A DNA stretch of 62,556 nt, filler included, from Globobulimina sp. (Eukaryota), in assembly GCA_003354225.1 (NCBI GenBank). It is 41 parts of 41 records of this genome, joined end to end, with 100 filler letters (N's around TTAATTAATTAA, not from the genome) between each part and the next. Parts side by side here need not be neighbours in the genome. Positions count along the whole stretch, not along the records: positions 9,179 to 10,607 come from PIVH01016817.1; 40 more parts are not named here. The stretch is one strand, 5' to 3'. This document shows positions 9,365 through 62,556 of the stretch, one piece after another (within the stretch, counting starts at the first letter, position 1; each line of letters starts with the position of its first letter). The notes beneath the pieces are model-generated. The model saw nothing but the letters and a program-made list of their open reading frames with translations. It was not told the DNA's origin and did not search any database. Position numbers and translations under genes: made by a program.

Positions 9365-9839
9365 ATCGTTAAATATATGACATTATCCTTGCACATTCTT
9401 ATGTTTTTGTACAGTATTTATAAATGAAAACTACTTACAAATGGCGCGTGCGTATAATAGTATTGGTGGAATATTTTTAATACACGATTATTAAATGATT
9501 TTGCGATTGAAAATTGATAACAGAAATATTTAGATTTTGATAATAAATTATATTCCATATATATTCGCCAGCAAAATAACCCAAAACCTCTGTTTAGTGA
9601 GTTGTTGATGCGAATGAGGCGGCCACCCAAACAAATTACAATTAACTGCACAGCAAATAAATTAAATATCCAAATATGTGCTGCAAAGAATATATCAATA
9701 AATAATATATAATAATTTAAATATATCCAATTCCTCGCAATTCCCGTATTGATATGGTAAGAATGTAATAATTGCTATATAATTACTTTCATTATTTTTT
9801 GCTTTGCCATTCCATTCCATGTGTTTTGTAATGTATTCT

Positions 9840-9871
9840 GTTCTGTGAAAACCTTTCAAGAGTAAGTATAA
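9840..9871 (+). repeat. 32-bp sequence identical to 62126..62157; contains GTAAGT splice donor after 22 nt
   Basis: GTTCTGTGAAAACCTTTCAAGAGTAAGTATAA in both contigs with unrelated flanks. Confidence 0.95.
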
Positions 9872-9948
9872 TTCACTGTTACACACATAAATTTGTGGGC
9901 AATGCATAGATTTGAGGACTGATGGATTCTTTTCGTTGTTTGTTTGTG

Positions 9949-10024
9949 TGCCGTCGCAGGATTTGAACCTGAATCTTCTGGATCCATCCATCCCGATCCA
10001 GGGCTCTTCTTGAGCTAAGCGATA
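9949..10024 (-). ncRNA. tRNA-like element (pseudo-tRNA or SINE head)
   Basis: A box TAGCTCAAG, D stem GCTC/GAGC, stem CTGGATC/GATCCAG, B box GGTTCAAATCC; acceptor stem does not pair properly. Confidence 0.7.
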
Positions 10025-10507
10025 ATAATATGGTGTTCCTTTTCTTCTGGGCATTGTGTGACCTTTTCGAACTGAACGGATGCATTAGGAAGCTGTTCGA
10101 AAAGTTTTTGAAAAATTCAGTACATATCGGAGAGCCCTAATTTGTAAAAGAAACAAAAAGATTTAATTGCCGATACCAAGTAAACCTAATGAATTTATCT
10201 CCGATCACTTCGGATTAAGGGAACTTTGTAGTAGTTTCAAATATTTTTATTTACCTTTGTTCATTGGTTTCACCCCCAAATAAAAGGGCCTGTATCCTTG
10301 TTTGTTTATACTATTTATTGTTTCTTGCTAGTGTATTATGTGAAATCTTTAATTGATTTCTTAGTGTTTTGAAAAAAAAAAAGAATAATCAATCCATCTT
10401 TTGAGTTAGAGTGGTTTTCAACGTAAACTATAGAAGTATTAGAAACATATTGAGCGGCCTGGAAATTATTCATTTAAATCGATGCTAATCTTTAAATTAA
10501 ACATCAC

Positions 10508-10607
10508 AAAAAAAAAAAAAAAAATAATTAAAAATAAAACAGCAAAAAAAAAAAAAAAAGGAAATAAAAAAAAAAAAAAAAGAAGAAAAAAAAAAAAAAA
10601 CAGAAAA
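10508..10607. repeat. Poly(A)-rich low-complexity tract at contig end
   Basis: Nearly pure A runs. Confidence 0.9.
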
Positions 10608-12136: not shown

Positions 12137-12682
12137 NNNNNNNNNNNNNNNNNNNNNNNNNNNNNNNNNNNNNNNNNNNNTTAATTAATTAANNNNNNNN
12201 NNNNNNNNNNNNNNNNNNNNNNNNNNNNNNNNNNNNAGCAAATCAGACGGGTCACCCAAGGAACATTATCTACACAGAGTTGATCAAATTATTTTATATA
12301 TATGATCTCAGGTCGAACTAGTATTTAAACTAATTTTCTTAGCAATTATACACTTATGGGAAACATATTTTGCTAATATATGGGAAACCAATTGTGATGC
12401 AAATACCATTAATTAATTTGCAACCACAATATGGACAAATAGAAACAATATACGGTCATATGACAACGCTATACTGTCAGATAGAAACAATATAATGTCA
12501 AATGGAAACAGTATTTGTAGACTTGCGAATATGTGCAGTATATTGTTCTGTTGTGCATACAACCTTGTTTTAGATTTATTGCATGGCTCTGGAAATTCTT
12601 GCCATATCAAAAATAAATCCGTTGTAGAATACATGACATTGTCGCACACACAAAATTTGTCAACAATCTCCGCAGTAACTGA

Positions 12683-13470
12683 ATGACGACAAAAAGCACA
12701 CATTTCCAACCCATCCCCATGATCAACATGGATGAAGACATAGATGGCGAACAACCTGATGAAGAAGAAAAACACAAACCAGTGAATGTTCATTTAGCAA
12801 AATTAGACGCCATGGCTGAGGAATATAACAAGCGATTAAGCAATGCAGAAAATCAACCCCCAAAGGAATCAAAAAATAATGACAGTATATTGTTACATGA
12901 ATTGCTCGACAAAGACCAACAGGTTCCACCAAAATTAATGTACCATCAAGATGAGAATGGAATGGATGATTCTGAGGATGATTGGGAATACCATCCTCGT
13001 TTAGGTGACTTAGAAAAACGCGAAATTACATTAAATATTAAAAATAACAAGAAAAACAAACGCGAGAAAAGAAAAGAAACATTATGGTTTGCTAAAGATA
13101 GCAACGGTTCCAAACGCAAAGTGTTCATATCAATAAAAATCAAACGTATCTCAGCCATCGATAACATCAAAGAAACCCTTCGTATGCGGTTCCATATGTA
13201 CTTAAATTGGATAATGACTGAAAACGAATATCGAAAATATAAGCAAAGTATTGGTGGCAAATATTATTACGAACCGCTCTGGAAACCAGATTTAGAGTTT
13301 ATGAATTCAGTGGAAACACATAATTCAGTTACAATATCCTATATTTTCCAACTTCCACGCAACAATTTCTCACTCTATACATGAACAGGAAACATTTGAA
13401 TATCCAGAATTTGGCAAATACAAAGTTGAAATGTTCAAAGATTTCTGGGTCGATGACGCGAATGAGAGGT
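12683..13470 (+). CDS. Pentameric ligand-gated ion channel-like extracellular domain, partial
   Basis: VFISIKIKRISAIDNIKETLRMRFHMYLNW and LWKPDLEFMN (WxP motif); probable intron 13328..13389. Confidence 0.65.
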
Positions 13471-13477
13471 GCCACGC

Positions 13478-13549
13478 ACATATGACTACATATTGCGCAC
13501 ATATGACTACATATGACGCGAATCATATGACTACATATTGCGCACATAC
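13478..13549. repeat. 21-24-bp tandem repeat (CATATGACTACATATTGCGCA), 3 copies
   Basis: Reads HMTTYCA x3; contains CATATG and TGCGCA palindromes. Confidence 0.85.
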
Positions 13550-13765
13550 AGTAGTGTTCCCGATAAGAGGTACGCATATTAGTACTAAAATATATATTTT
13601 ATCTAATCATATATTTACGAAATGGTGGAGCTGTCAAGGGCTAATATATATAATATATATAATATNNNNNNNNNNNNNNNNNNNNNNNNNNNNNNNNNNN
13701 NNNNNNNNNTTAATTAATTAANNNNNNNNNNNNNNNNNNNNNNNNNNNNNNNNNNNNNNNNNNNN

Positions 13766-14071
13766 AACCAAAGTTTATATAAAAAATTGGAAGCCGATAT
13801 TGCCTTGTGGCCTTTGTACAATGATAGCGGCAAAGAAGAAAGAGAATTGAGCTCAAAAATTCAAACTAATTTGGAGAAATATTGTGTTGCTTGTAATTTC
13901 AGCCAATTTTTTGACCTGCCGGAAGGATCAGAACTTCACAGTTGTCAAGATCCAAACCGCGAGGACTTTATTATCGCTTTGAAAGAGGCTAATGAAAATG
14001 AAGAACCTTCCGAAGAAGCAATCGAGAAAGCTTACAAGAAATTATTCCCAGATGGAAAAAACATTGCGTGA
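13766..14071 (+). CDS. Unknown ORF of Polinton-like element, overlapping the integrase start
   Basis: Intronless; overlaps integrase ATG at 14052. Confidence 0.55.
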   Translation, partial: NQSLYKKLEADIALWPLYNDSGKEERELSSKIQTNLEKYCVACNFSQFFDLPEGSELHSCQDPNREDFIIALKEANENEEPSEEAIEKAYKKLFPDGKNIA

Positions 14072-15017
14072 CATTTACTACGATCCTACTTCACCAGTAG
14101 GGTATTCGGGCAACAAAAGAAAATTTTATAAATATGTCAAGAAAATAATTCCCGGACTATCCAAAAGAAATGTGGACAAGTTTTTTTCGCATCAAAAAGG
14201 TTACACCAACAGAGCACCGGCTAAATACAAATTCAAAAGGAGGCAAGTTGTCGCTCGCGGTTATTTTTACCTAGCCCAAGCCGATTTGGCCAATATGTCC
14301 GGTCTAAAACGAGCCAACAGCGGTTATGCCTATATATTGCTGGTGGTGGGCGTGTTATCCAAAATGATCTGGACGCGGCCTTTGAAAAGAAAAACTGGGG
14401 AAGAAACAAGCAAAGCGATGAAAGACATATTTGATTCATTCCCAAAGGGCAAGATGTTTATGCGCTGTCAAACGGACGGGGGTACAGAATTTTTCAACGT
14501 TCACATGAAGAAACTTATGCAAGAAAATGGGGTAATACTATTTCGTACCGAACAATATGATGTCAAAAGTTCGGTGGCCGAAGTCAATATAAGAATATTA
14601 AAACATCGCCTATGGCGTTATATGGATTCCCAAGGGACAAAACGTTGGTTGGACATTTTGGATCCTATAACGCAAAGCCGGAACAATACAACATTTCCAG
14701 GACACGGGCTCAAACCTTCGGAAGTGGATGAATATAATGCCGGCGATTTGTTTCAAAAACTTTATCCCGAGTTATCCCGAGGAATGAGAAGATTTCCATT
14801 GAAACACAAGTACAAGATTGATCAAAAAGTAAAACTCAGTATATTGAGAAACCCATTAAGACACAGTTTCTATCAAACTTATACGGACGAAGTGTTTTCT
14901 GTACATTCATTATCGAACACGGATCCGGTAACATATCGGGTTAAAAACCTCTCTGGAGACATTATCAAAGGAAGCGTTTACGAAGATGAAATGCTACCCA
15001 TCTACAATGATGAATAA
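14052..15017 (+). mobile_element. Polinton/Maverick-type retroviral-like DDE integrase
   Basis: IYYDP..P.GYSG, QADL, QTDGGTEF, KSSVAE, PVTYRVKNLSGDIIKGSVYEDEM; D-D-E triad present. Confidence 0.92.
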
Positions 15018-15098
15018 TTTGATGGTTTTCATCATTTTCATCATTATATTCAATTTATAAACACAGAGAATGTAGTTTTCTTCATATCGATATTAATC

Positions 15099-15194
15099 AT
15101 GGCGTCGAGAAAGAAAAAGGCCACAAAACGTCCTTTGACCGTTTGCGCTTCTTGTCGAAAAACAATTCAAAAATTGATGAAGACCAAGAAAAGA
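15099..15194 (+). CDS. Basic CxxC ORF start downstream of integrase, truncated
   Basis: MASRKKKATKRPLTVCASCRKTIQK. Confidence 0.45.
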
Positions 15195-15294
15195 NNNNNN
15201 NNNNNNNNNNNNNNNNNNNNNNNNNNNNNNNNNNNNNNTTAATTAATTAANNNNNNNNNNNNNNNNNNNNNNNNNNNNNNNNNNNNNNNNNNNN

Positions 15295-16154
15295 ATCAAA
15301 ACATAATAAATATTGTTTAATTGATTATGCAACGTTTTTAAGATATATATTCAAATTATGTCCTCATTTAACTTCGTTTAAATGCAACGTTCGAACAGTG
15401 GCCGCTTTACGAAGAGCAATATATACGCAAGAAACCAGATAAAATGGAAATGGATGGGTTTGAATTAACGGATATTTCATTTAAATCATTGCAACATATT
15501 AATATATCATTATTTACAGCTAAGAATGCAACACATTTATTATCCAAATTAACATCGCATAAACAATTACAAACATTAAAAATAAATATATTAATTCCTG
15601 ATTTAGATACAAACGACAAAATAAATTATAGATATTATATGAAAGAGAGTATAAATGATTTTGTTGATGATATGTGCCAATTTTTACAAAATCGAAGCAA
15701 GAATTTATATTATTTTGCAATATCGTTTGGAAGTTATCAAGTAATGCATAAATGTTTGAGCAAAACATATTGGAATCCATATCATAAATATTTACAATTT
15801 ATATTAAAAATGATTGAAAATGGTAATGGTTTTGATGGCTGCTTAAAATTTGCGCTACCAAGTGGTCTGCCCATTGGATATAAGAACGATAACCCGATGG
15901 ACCGGATGGACCATTATAAATGGAATAAGATAAATATTGAAGGATCATTAAGAACTGCTCAGTTACTCTCTAAAATACAAACTATAATTCATCAAAATAA
16001 TGAGTTATTAAAAGATACAACATGTTATGGAAAGAAATTAGTGCTTGCGATGTGGCGATTACATTTGTATGGAGCACATAAAAAATTTCTCAGATTTTGG
16101 TTTAATAATAAAAACTTATACGATGAAGATTACTCAAAATTTGTCATGTATTGA
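15295..16154 (+). CDS. Hypothetical protein, 5' partial (possible LRR-like C-terminus)
   Basis: Long AT-rich ORF of more than 236 aa. Confidence 0.55.
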
Positions 16155-16840
16155 TATTTGACCATTTAAAGATTTAATTCTAATCACAAACAGACAGTAT
16201 TTTTAATTTTGATATCCAACACACCTTTAAATTGTCGGATTTATTCGTTGGACAACAATTAAGGTTTATTTTAAATTAAATACTATATACTCGCGTTTAC
16301 CTTAATCGTGCACACGGCGTTCGGAACAATGAAACAACTGCATTTATCGCAAAGGTTTTAGGTTTCATGTTTTTTATGTTTCGAGCAAAACAAGTTCATT
16401 CTGGCAGAAGAATGGACCAATGATTCAAGGTTTCAATTTTTGTAGGTCCGACAAAATCCGATTATGTTTCTTTCATTACTTCGAAAGAGGGTTCCGAGCG
16501 TATACATCTATAACGGATGCCCATGAAATTGACTTTTGTTGCTTTCAAACTTTTTTTTCGTTTGCTTAATCCCTTATGTACTTTAATATATAAATAATCA
16601 TAATTTTCGACTTGACAATCGGAGTTCTCAGCTCGAATTGTCAACTTTCAGTTAAATAATGTGGCTCGTAACGACTTATTTTATTATATTTGATATAGAA
16701 AATACCTTACTAACAATTTATATNNNNNNNNNNNNNNNNNNNNNNNNNNNNNNNNNNNNNNNNNNNNTTAATTAATTAANNNNNNNNNNNNNNNNNNNNN
16801 NNNNNNNNNNNNNNNNNNNNNNNAATATTAAATAACAAAA

Positions 16841-18024
16841 TTATCTATTTATATAATTATGTAAATTAACTTGAGCGAATTGTTCATTTTGCACATAAGA
16901 GGAAAAGTGATGTTCTACTCTTTCTATGGTGTCTTCATCGGAACGGACAATAAATCGCATAGCGAATCTGGGCGCCACTGAGTCAAAACAGTCGATCGGT
17001 TTTAGTAACTCCAGCTCATTGTTGTTGATATTAAATAATTCACAAAATTTGCGTTCCAAATGCTTGGTCAGTCCCAAGTGTCGCAACGAAGATAAGTTTG
17101 CTTCCGATACTTCAAAAAAACAATGCAACTGATTTTTGGAGAGATATTTGTCGTGCAACCAACGAGAGGATCTGCCATGACATACATACCAACAGCTGAG
17201 CAAAAACGAGAGTAATATGGGCACGAAGGAGGACAAAATTATAATATCCCAGGTTTTGATACAAAATAAATAAATAATTCGCAGCAAAAATAGCGGTAAT
17301 AACTGCGTCAAGATATTGAAGAATTTCTTACTTAAAATGAAGCTTATGTCGTATTTACTGATTTGCATTGAAAATAATGGTAAACCCAATAAGTTGGACT
17401 TGAACAATGGGACACTGATAAATGGGCCAAATGTGAGGAGAGATATGGAAAAAAAAGAGAAACTGTGTAATGTGGAACGGAACCAATGATGGATTCGTTT
17501 GTTGTTTTGGTTTAAAACATAGATCATACGGCAGCATAATATCTGTTTATTGTTATGTTGTTTGGTGTGGATTGTATAGAATTGATATGTAACAAATGGA
17601 TACGTACGAAATTTATGAGATAAGTGGTGGAGAGGCAGCTCAATGAAATGATTAAAAATATGGTGTATTGATTGTCGATATCGGTGATACTTAAACCATC
17701 TTGGTAATGATTGTAAAATATGAATGAAATGAATAAAATGTCGCAGATATATTCCCAAAAATAGATGATGAACACAAAAATGTACGAGTATCGAAAATTA
17801 TCTTCGCGTTTACAACATGTACAGAATGGGTTTAGCCACGCGTGAGAACAGCCGGATAATAATATGGTGAGTATGACGAATAGCAATATAGTGTAGGTGA
17901 AGAAAAATGTTACTTGGACTTCCGAGGAGTAGTTAATTTTGTGAAATTCGTAGACTTCATTCTCGTGTGATTGTCCTGTAAAATATTTGTAGACTCCATC
18001 TGTTTTCCATGTCAATGATGACAT
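16841..18024 (-). CDS. Multi-pass membrane protein, two exons
   Basis: GT-AG intron 17543..17607 joins ORFs 17524..18024 and 16841..17758 (YLINF/ILCCRMIYV); several TM helices. Confidence 0.75.
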
Positions 18025-27524: not shown

Positions 27525-28952
27525 CAATTCTGCTGTGTTGGCGTAAATGATTTCGAAGCGAACGCTATGGGCCGAAATATCTTATCATCGTCGTATTGTC
27601 CAATCACGCCACCAATGCCGTTGATCGATGCATCGCAAAATATATGTAATTCGCGATCAGGATCGGGATGTATCAGAATATCGGCCGATTGTATCATTAT
27701 TTTAAGCGATGCGAAGGCTTTCCGGCGAATCGCATTCATCTCGAATGGCATATTTGTTTCAAGCAATTCATACAATGGTTTAGCGATTTGGTGCAAGTCA
27801 GGTATGAATTTGTGTAAATATGCCACCAATCCAAGGAAGACTTGCATGGCATCCTTACCATGCGGCTCAGGTACATTTATTACCTTTTTTTTGTATCTAT
27901 CTGTTGGGCGATAACCATATTTATTCACATAATAGCCCAAATATTCAGTTTCTTGCGCCGCGAACAGACACTTATCGATCCGGAGCTTAATATTATGTGT
28001 TTTTATGCGCTCAAAGACGGCGCGAATGTGTTGTAGATGCTGCTGCAAATTATCACTAAGTATGGCAATGTCGTCGATATATACAACGACGAAGTCCATA
28101 TCCTCGAATATTTTGGTCATGATTCGCTGGAACGCCGCAGGCGCATTTTTCAGGCCCATCGGCATCACCGTCCATTGATATAACTGGCCATCGAACTCGA
28201 ATGCAGTCAGTGGCTTCGTGGCATCGTCCAACGGTATGTGCCAATATCCGGCCTTCATATCCAGCGAAGTTATGTATGCCTTCCCTCTGAATCTCTGTAA
28301 TAATTTTTGTATGTTAGGTATGGGGAATTGGTCGGGCTTTGTGAGGTGGTTCAAACGGCGGAAGTCGAATACTATGCGTACATCGCCGGTTTTCTTAGGT
28401 CGGCCAAAGATGCTCGATCTCCAATCGCTGCTGCTTTTTTCTATGCGATTATCGTCCTTCAAATTCTCGATTTGGCCCTTCAAATTATCAAAATATTTAT
28501 GGCTGATATAATATGTGGGATTTACGACGGGATCGGTGTTGATGTCGTCGCGCAGCGTTATTTTGAACTTTTCGCCATGGATCTTGCCAATGTCCGCACC
28601 ACTGCCACCTTGTGAGATATTGTCGGCATACGTATGAATTATATCCATTATCGGTCCATGCGCGGCCTTATCATGTATTGTAATATCAAGATTATCGATG
28701 GCAGCGCGTACATCGGCGGCATCAGTGTTCAATGGGTATAGCTCACAGCCCATATCATCGAGGCCATCCTCGTAGTGCTCAGTATGTGATTTGTGTTTAA
28801 AGGGCGTGTCCATTTTTGATAGTTTATAGCCCAATGCATGAATTAGAGAGCGACCAATGAGGTAATTTATGTCGTCTGGTAATTGATTTAAGACATAAAA
28901 TTTTGTCTTAATTATGCGTTTTTTATGCAATATATTCATAGGAAGGTACTCG
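27525..28952 (-). mobile_element. Ty3/Gypsy LTR retrotransposon pol (protease end, RT, RNase H start), uninterrupted frame
   Basis: RIVFDFRRLN, LDMKAGYWHI, MPMGLKNAP, YIDDI, FCDAS, PIAFAS. Confidence 0.95.
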
Positions 28953-59764: not shown

Positions 59765-59846
59765 GAGCACCTAGCTCAATTGGTAGAGAATTGGTTTGAA
59801 TGGATTGCAAACGAAATGGATGTAGGTTCGAATCCTACGGTGATAA
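59765..59846 (+). ncRNA. tRNA-like element with enlarged anticodon arm
   Basis: A box TAGCTCAATTGG; perfect T arm GTAGG-TTCGAAT-CCTAC; partial acceptor CACC/GGTG; followed by ATGGA repeats. Confidence 0.75.
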
Positions 59847-61141: not shown

Positions 61142-61798
61142 ATGCCATGAAGTAACAGAAAAAGAAATGACTTCCTTCCCTTATTATTACTATTTGGCCA
61201 ATTACAGGAGATTGAACTCAATCGTCTCCCTCCTGTGACTTTAATATTCTTTGCGATCAACATAGCAGTTCATTTCATGGCTGATTACATTCCATTATCA
61301 GATGTTTGCATTCGCCCAATATCTGTCATTCAATTTGGCCAATATGAGGTTGATTCCGTCCGCATTTTTCATGCAGATAGTTGGCATTTATACTACAATA
61401 TGGTATCATTATTATGGAAAGGAATGAAGTTCGAAAGAAACATTGGATCAGCTCGATTGTTTACGCTTATTCTCATCTCAACTTTTTTATCATCACTGTT
61501 TTCCATTCATGCGCATTACCAAACTTATAACAACCGACATAACTGATCATAGTCAATTAATATGTTGGTTGCAAATACAAATTATTCGGGGTTTTCTATA
61601 CCAACAAAATATTTATGTTGGTTTGAATTGGTATTAATAATTTTGATTACACCAAACGCGTCATTCTCAGGACATCTTTGTGGAATCTTTGTTGGTTTAT
61701 TATGTTGCATTGGATTATTTAATCCTATTTTTGAGATTGTCTATCAGTTAGGAATTGATGCAGAGAAACCAAAACAAAGAACAATGGAATATGTTTAG
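61142..61798 (+). pseudogene. Rhomboid (RHBDD1/RHBDL4-like) pseudogene
   Basis: PPVT, HLYYNMVSLLWKG, WFEL, SFSGHLCG; TGA at codon 3, internal stops near 61546, catalytic GxSG segment absent. Confidence 0.8.
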
Positions 61799-62125
61799 TA
61801 TGGAATGGGAGGTCCGTAGGATGAGTAAATTTTAATCAACTTATGATTGGAGCATAATAATCCAAATGTGAACAAATATTTGTATTTGCAAATAGGAAAC
61901 GGGAAGTATTGTCAGATGTATACATATGGAAACAGTAATAAATAATTATTGACCTTGTCAAGTAGCGCGAAAATATGATAAAATTATTCTAATACTTATG
62001 TTAAACAAATATAGAATATAATATTTGATATTTCCTTGATTTTTCCCATTTAACGCCTTGTTAGTATGTTCAAATATAAACCTGAAAATATACTGTTTTT
62101 CACAGTTGTGTGTTACTGACTACTG

Positions 62126-62157
62126 GTTCTGTGAAAACCTTTCAAGAGTAAGTATAA
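62126..62157 (+). repeat. Second copy of the 32-bp donor-containing island
   Basis: Identical to 9840..9871. Confidence 0.95.
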
Positions 62158-62256
62158 CCCACAATCCTTTCGTTAAGGACTAAACTCTGAAAGGTATAAC
62201 TAAAGTAAACCTCTTGGCAGATCCACCCAATCTCGACAGTCAAAATTCACACCACG

Positions 62257-62556
62257 ATGAAGAAAAATAGAGACCAGAATAATAAAAATAAATCACCGCA
62301 ACAAATACTCAAAGGAAAGAAACGCCCACAGAAACCGGCGCCATCCAACAAATTCGTACTCAACACATTGTACTCGCAACATAATAAAATGGTGGATGAT
62401 ATCAAGAACATTCAGAACGATTTGGAGCAATTAGGTCAGAGAAAAGAGGACGTTGCTCACAGGAGTAAGCAAAACGCGGTCCTTCGACATTTAATGGATA
62501 ATAAAAGAAAAATATCGAGAACAATTAAGAATTTGGAATTAACGATGGGTAAGAAA
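62257..62556 (+). CDS. Basic, coiled-coil ORF open to window end (possible mobile-element ORF), preceded by a probable 5'UTR intron 62148..62220
   Basis: MKKNRDQNNKNKSPQQILKGKKRPQKP...; 100 codons without stop; not in the ORF track. Confidence 0.6.
   Translation, partial: MKKNRDQNNKNKSPQQILKGKKRPQKPAPSNKFVLNTLYSQHNKMVDDIKNIQNDLEQLGQRKEDVAHRSKQNAVLRHLMDNKRKISRTIKNLELTMGKK

Follow-up and report, generated by a model that had tools for sequence, protein, structure and literature searches.

The window, by which is meant the whole stretch of 62,556 nt analysed here, consists of 41 pieces of 1427–1430 nt, each joined to the next by N44, a 12-nt spacer and N44, and it contains about 59 kb of actual sequence, which was searched for copies of a short repeated block. 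Its long open reading frames (ORFs), read in the standard code, include a fragment of an axonemal dynein heavy chain, ankyrin repeats, RCC1 repeats and a SET domain, among others, and mark the source organism as a eukaryote with flagella. The block and the features that surround it, or that bear on its interpretation, are as follows.

9840–9871, plus strand: copy 1 of the block, a 22-nt leader-like segment (9840–9861) followed by GTAAGTATAA (9862–9871)
9890–9898, plus strand: Sm-like AATTTGTGG, 3' of copy 1, at +29
9927–9934, plus strand: pyrimidine/T stretch TTCTTTTC, some 65 nt downstream of the copy 1 donor, read from the sequence
9948–10024, minus strand: tRNA-like element (Rfam tRNA match at 10017–9956, 24 bits against a gathering score of 29)
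27527–28951 (minus strand) and 13983–15017 (plus strand): LTR-retrotransposon genes, with Ty3-type reverse transcriptase and RNase H (E = 9.4e-37) and an integrase core match that is weak and falls below threshold
59765–59846, plus strand: tRNA gene (Rfam, 30.9 bits against a gathering score of 29)
61151–61798, plus strand: rhomboid-domain ORF (Pfam, E = 2.1e-09)
62126–62157, plus strand: copy 2 of the block, an exact 32-mer, of which 62127–62157 is the core common to other sequencing runs
62148–62220, plus strand: candidate cis intron of 73 nt, with GTAAGT, TAACTAAAG at 62197–62205 and CAG at 62218–62220, likewise read by eye from the letters
62188–62195, plus strand: hairpin arm, an 8-nt perfect inverted repeat that pairs with the leader at 62137–62144, 43 nt downstream
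62257–62556, plus strand: ORF 3' of copy 2, starting at the ATG at 62257 and still open where the piece ends

The exact 32-nt match between two contigs reported in a preliminary description of this DNA was confirmed at 9840–9871 and 62126–62157, in pieces 7 and 41, with both copies on the plus strand. The 32-mer occurs twice in the window, where 100 shuffles give an expectation of zero. No further copy was found in the window at up to three mismatches, and searches at the same tolerance with the 22-nt leader part, or with an 18-mer spanning the junction, returned the same two matches only. Twelve pairs of pieces have any 16-mer in common; the block pair has 17 consecutive 16-mers (32 nt), and the next longest stretches common to two pieces measure 20 and 19 nt (at most five consecutive 16-mers). 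An ungapped scan of the window was empty between 21/32 and 32/32, which leaves no degenerate copies, and yielded six matches at 19–21/32, against a mean of 18.3 for shuffled motifs. Within the window, copies of the block are hence perfect or absent. The flanks of the two copies had been described as unrelated, and the blastn comparison of their pieces agrees: similarity is confined to the neighbourhood of the block (9822–9876 against 62107–62162, 82% over 56 columns, the 32 exact ones included), and anything elsewhere in the two pieces is weak or A-rich. The sole other blastn similarity between the two pieces stems from the A tract at the end of piece 7 (10500–10607), a low-complexity stretch of long A homopolymers with few interruptions. 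Conservation starts abruptly about 21–22 nt 5' of the donor and ends at intron position +10. The piece that carries copy 1 is 1.43 kb long, has about 29% GC and contains no convincing ORF.

The search was extended to a set of seven runs from three studies (2018, 2022 and 2024), none of them recorded as RNA, and contigs of the public runs X1, X4, X6 and X7 were compared with piece 41. X1 is the best-covering run (0.63 of sampled words); X4 derives from organism B, and X6 and X7 derive from one sample of organism C. Since organisms B and C match the window at about 95–96% identity (about 4–5% divergence) over the rhomboid gene, they are, on this measure, close relatives of the source organism. 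The matches listed comprise 8 of 58 contigs in X1 and 21 of 74 pieces over the four runs. The 31-nt core was found in contigs of X4, X6 and X7, with flanks unlike those of the window. It is intact (31/31) at positions 1249–1279 of a 2180-nt contig in X7, carries one mismatch (30/31) at positions 535–565 of a 1720-nt contig in X6, and appears in X4 (62127–62157) as contigs of merely 36 and 32 nt, a pattern taken to mean that the assembly graph branches on either side of the core. Judged by eye, the 30 letters on either side in X6 and X7 resemble neither those of the window nor each other. The base preceding the core is T in X6 and X7 instead of the G of the window copies, so that the common unit measures 31 nt, or perhaps 33, the core continuing with TT in copy 1, X6 and X7 alike. 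The high copy number proposed from the two window copies is supported by these extra contexts and by X1, where the summed contig depth climbs to 164 and 312 in the two bins that cover the block (the peak of 312 in bin 62138–62185), against 8–17 in most others.

Because the 31-nt core recurs in further unlike contexts of three other runs, the block is a dispersed and sharply bounded motif. It is real and above chance, letter-perfect over 31–33 nt, and has a maximal splice donor embedded in it. On its own, the identity of the 31-mer across relatives would be weak evidence of constraint, given a divergence of only about 4–5% between the runs and the window; its recurrence in unrelated contexts with sharp borders is the stronger evidence. 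The X6 and X7 contigs look like DNA, since they retain the donor, reach 534 and 1248 nt, respectively, further 5' than the core, and keep 121 letters across the diverged segment of the rhomboid gene; they are hence treated as uninformative on splicing. Some contigs of X4 and X6 terminate in adapter-like letters (at the loose ends 61158 and 61133), indicating that these contigs were assembled from untrimmed reads. Such letters, the small size of the runs and the sharp borders on both sides of the block are what a laboratory or assembly artefact would leave, in the form of a synthetic oligonucleotide or a chimeric junction present in several data sets. This origin is nevertheless highly improbable, given that the block appears in runs of all three studies and lies inside long contigs with AT-rich flanks like the rest of the genome, and that plasmid and phage collections returned no match to it.

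Two other stretches of the spacer that holds copy 2, at 61907–61948 and 62065–62104, also match contigs of X1 and X4 whose continuations differ on both sides. These matches carry 2–3 mismatches in the X4 contigs listed, and the contigs matching 61907–61948 show some residual flank similarity, from which ordinary diverged repeats or shared non-coding modules seem to be present in the region. The 31-mer differs from these neighbouring stretches in being exact and in having flanks without residual similarity.

The preliminary description had resolved the block into 22 nt plus a consensus donor, and both the length of 21–22 nt and the GTAAGTAT donor fit the mini-exon of a spliced-leader (SL) RNA. 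GTAAGT is no more frequent in the window than expected (14 occurrences against 18.56), and both of the GTAAGTATAA sites present there lie inside the block copies, so that the donor is a specific property of the block. The donor reads GUAAGUAU, which we take to be eight contiguous bases complementary to the 5' end of U1 snRNA, and the GTAAGTAT form would presumably be the longest possible U1 complementarity on the intron side. A transcript start at one end and a splice-site recognition region at the other would give sharp borders exactly such as those observed. The complement of the block, we assume, begins like the 5' end of U1; a U1 snRNA gene on the minus strand was considered and ruled out, Rfam reporting no U1 and the flanks being unconserved.

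The same dispersal and copy number could also belong to repetitive or mobile DNA, or to a site that acts at the DNA level (a protein-binding site or promoter module), in which case GTAAGT would be there by accident and no splicing would take place. The window does contain LTR-retrotransposon genes, the stretches at 61907–61948 and 62065–62104 also match X1 and X4 with different continuations, and part of the core of copy 2 is repeated in inverted form 43 nt downstream. An origin of this kind is a serious contender, though on balance an unlikely one. The block has sharp borders, and neither flank is related among the four contexts in which flanks can be read; since a terminal repeat would share its inner side, the unshared inner flank counts against one. 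An inverted partner at up to three mismatches is likewise absent from the window, whose pieces, only 1.4 kb long, may be too short to include a distant one, and no decayed copies occur in the window. Furthermore, the presence of a perfect 8-nt donor 21–22 nt into the sole repeated block would have to be put down to coincidence. Exact identity over 31 nt exceeds what protein-binding sites usually keep. Introner-type transposons are dispersed and bring a splice donor with them, but their copies are alike over the whole length and are defined inside genes, whereas copies of the block have only 31–33 nt in common and both window copies lie outside ORFs. A retrotransposon primer-binding site was ruled out as well, the required TGG being present at copy 2 only.

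The vicinity of copy 1 had suggested another mobile origin, in which the block would be the minus-strand tail of a SINE derived from a tRNA and headed by the tRNA-like element that lies 78 nt from copy 1 on that strand. The element itself is real but weak, its Rfam match falling below the gathering score; ARAGORN reports no tRNA there by default and only at a lowered threshold makes out an intron-containing fold that poorly resembles tRNA-Pro(GGG). The element is probably the relic of a tRNA, and no link between it and the repeated block was found. The antisense SINE tail fails as an account of the block, and we consider it very improbable: copy 2 has no tRNA-like neighbour, the would-be body of the element, that is, the sequence between the tRNA-like head and the block, is not common to the copies, and the X6 and X7 contexts differ too.

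The arrangement expected of an SL RNA gene can be compared with the block element by element. A mini-exon stands directly before a GU donor in both copies (22 nt, then GTAAGTATAA), and the leader is present in multiple identical copies, two of them exact in about 59 kb and further ones in X1, X4, X6 and X7. The Sm-like AATTTGTGG that the preliminary description had singled out is indeed located at 9890–9898, but its frequency is that of chance, since the window has two copies where 2.10 are expected and at least two appear in 63 of 100 shuffles, and it has no counterpart at copy 2. A relaxed Sm pattern, which is present in 8.5% of random 90-nt windows, is absent from the 90 nt after copy 2. 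The preliminary description had noted weak stem-loops and a possible pairing of the Sm-like site; in the predicted fold, the site at 9890–9898, which is half of a palindrome, is paired. Over its first 100 nt, copy 1 is less stably folded than shuffled sequence (z = +1.35), with 185 of 200 shuffles at least as stable. The Sm-like site after copy 1 is probably coincidental, and no Sm site of the AAU3-6GG/U type, common to the copies and single-stranded in the intron part, was found. At copy 2, the 71-nt fold is more stable than most shuffles (z = −2.15; 10 of 200 fold as well) and its hairpin encloses the donor, but copy 1 has no equivalent, and the predicted folds reveal no structure common to both copies. 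Past +10, no intron similarity was detected in any of the four contexts with readable flanks.

At the gathering score, Rfam recognised a single tRNA in the whole window and neither an SL nor an snRNA family; with the limit relaxed to E = 10, piece 7 yielded nine weak matches, none of them to a family of either kind. The lack of a match to a described SL family weighs little, since SL sequences are lineage-specific. The leader would end in A. Were copy 1 an SL RNA gene, TTCTTTTC could serve as its 3' end signal, and the layout of a piece without genes, with an Sm-like site at +29 followed, near +65, by a pyrimidine/T stretch, is that of a classical SL, each element alone being at the level of chance. 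Of the original proposal of an SL RNA gene, the multiplicity of copies, the exactness to +10 and the fit of length and donor hence stand, while the Sm site, a shared intron or structure and a match in Rfam do not. Because the copies have neither an Sm site in common nor a conserved intron part with a fold, the block is not filed as a canonical SL RNA gene.

Copy 2 lies inside a 458-nt spacer between the rhomboid ORF and a syntaxin-like ORF on the same strand, about 100 nt upstream of the ATG at 62257. The match of the latter ORF (62257–62556) to Syntaxin is weak, at 17 bits, under the cut-off of 26.7 bits. The rhomboid ORF is interrupted by in-frame stops at 61544–61552, and in X4, X6 and X7 its segment 61503–61569 is replaced by 121 other letters; the interruption may be an intron or a variable insert, and no GT-AG borders that would keep the frame could be placed for it. 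Downstream of copy 2, the ATG follows the CAG acceptor by 36 nt, and the segment 62148–62220 would make a plausible 5'-UTR intron, so that copy 2 may be simply a cis-spliced first exon. A dispersed small-RNA gene would, however, often lie near a gene start in a compact genome, and the context of copy 2 is hence not decisive.

Generalized to the other copies, such an arrangement would constitute a common leader spliced in cis, in which a transcription start, a non-coding first exon and a donor are encoded separately upstream of many genes, and the exon is spliced over a short 5'-UTR intron to the exon bearing the ATG. Such a system would leave the flanks unrelated and the borders sharp, both at the start and at +10, and selection at each gene would explain the all-or-none pattern of copies. 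It agrees with the position of copy 2 between same-strand ORFs and with its donor, branch-like TAACTAAAG, CAG at 73 nt and ATG 36 nt further on, and the candidate coding introns of the window, which are unverified, are of similar length (about 57–97 nt). Against it, no plausible ORF was found within the 736 nt that follow copy 1, and there is no obvious route by which a 31-nt module would spread. Moreover, the candidate introns that join two long ORFs include none with GTAAGT and 13 with GTATGT, although control words scored 4 and 23 and the scan is not discriminating. To our knowledge, there is no precedent for a common leader system spliced in cis, and we hold this account to be doubtful. 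Less probable again is a mixed state, in which a leader spliced in cis at individual genes, as copy 2 would be, coexists with stand-alone trans donors such as copy 1.

Among known SL systems, nematode and dinoflagellate leaders measure 22 nt and are encoded by genes of high copy number, with a short and variable intron in dinoflagellates. In nematodes the SL RNA forms three stem-loops and contains a conserved Sm site, and the dinoflagellate leader carries an Sm-like motif inside the exon. The block resembles both in its 22-nt leader and high copy number, but has neither the Sm site and stem-loops of nematodes nor the exonic Sm-like motif of dinoflagellates. Parallels are also offered by two further groups. 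For the rhizarian Paulinella micropora, SL RNA mini-exons are given a range of about 15–52 nt, and two SL gene subtypes (SL-I and SL-II) are described that have distinct introns and no typical Sm site (PMC6053224). The block likewise combines a short leader containing a UUU triplet with multiple copies of leader and GT in fragmented contigs, and it also has no typical Sm site; the distinct introns of the Paulinella subtypes are a further point of likeness (PMC6053224). It departs from SL-I, which is there reported to be highly conserved from +1 to +130, with three stem-loops and the junction in stem I, in that its conservation ends at about +32 from the start and no fold is shared, and from the typical leader, whose 3' base is given as G, in that its own would be A (PMC6053224).

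The eustigmatophyte stramenopiles have proven SL trans-splicing and 24–239 candidate SL RNA genes with dissimilar variants, and their leaders, of 40–57 nt and ending in CAG, were recovered in at least 155,671 reads at 12,313–17,426 acceptor sites (PMC8570151). A canonical Sm motif is recorded there in 6 of 170 Vischeria genes and in none of those of Monodopsis and Microchloropsis (PMC8570151). Since an Sm site is thus missing in Paulinella as well as in most eustigmatophyte SL genes, its absence is no absolute bar to an SL function. The block resembles these genes (PMC8570151) in its many copies, its dissimilar variants, a GT directly after the leader and the general absence of the Sm motif, and differs from them in its leader of 21–22 nt, the terminal A, the lack of any common sequence and in being known from DNA alone. 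The source organism may also lean toward the stramenopiles, the dynein fragment of the window having the raphidophyte Heterosigma as its best named match, followed by other stramenopiles and green algae, though its best identity in the protein collection is 59%.

Taken together, these observations lead us to favour, tentatively and at a probability well short of even, a reading of the block as a minimal, non-canonical SL-type donor used in trans. The block would act at the RNA level, as a mini-exon of 21–22 nt followed by the strongest possible 5' splice site, GUAAGUAU. We infer that each dispersed locus is transcribed from the start of the block, that its donor is used, and that the mini-exon is joined in trans to AG acceptors of pre-mRNAs. 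The tail that plays the part of the intron would be free of sequence constraint, and hence no conserved Sm site or stem-loops would be expected in it. This SL-type reading is supported by the fact that the block is the only long stretch common among the 41 pieces, by its exact and all-or-none occurrence, by its recurrence with unlike flanks in three other runs and its depth in X1, by the specificity of its donor, by the layout around copy 1 and by the eustigmatophyte and Paulinella precedents. Against it stand the location of copy 2 upstream of a same-strand ATG with a plausible cis acceptor, the very high gene number that two copies in 59 kb would imply for an SL family, and the nature of the copies themselves, which have nothing in common past +10, a leader ending in A, an Sm-like site at chance level, no Rfam family and, at copy 1, a fold less stable than that of shuffled sequence.

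The readings differ in what they would mean. A true SL would extend trans-splicing to a lineage of protists that lacks closely related sequenced species, as the best dynein identity of 59% implies, and would do so with an exceptionally small donor unit, constraint being limited to the mini-exon and the first ten bases of the intron. Such a unit would bear on what SL RNAs need in order to function and on the origin of these systems. Should the leader instead be spliced in cis at many genes, it would represent a new form of gene organisation, and a leader spliced in cis accompanied by stand-alone trans donors would be an extant intermediate step from cis-splicing to SL trans-splicing. If the block were merely a repeat, the finding would be an ordinary one.

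Outside the window and the runs, the 32-mer had no match in metagenome contigs, and its 21-mer had none in viral contigs. The 21-mer has one metagenome match that is not followed by GTAAGT and one match within a bacterial coding region; neither has a donor, and both are taken as chance. In the main texts of the papers searched, 17-mers of the leader string are absent and its 12- to 13-mers appear only in five unrelated ones. Within the window itself, the tRNA gene at 59765–59846, which ARAGORN misses in its default bacterial mode, carries a 22-nt insert in the anticodon arm that is probably an intron.
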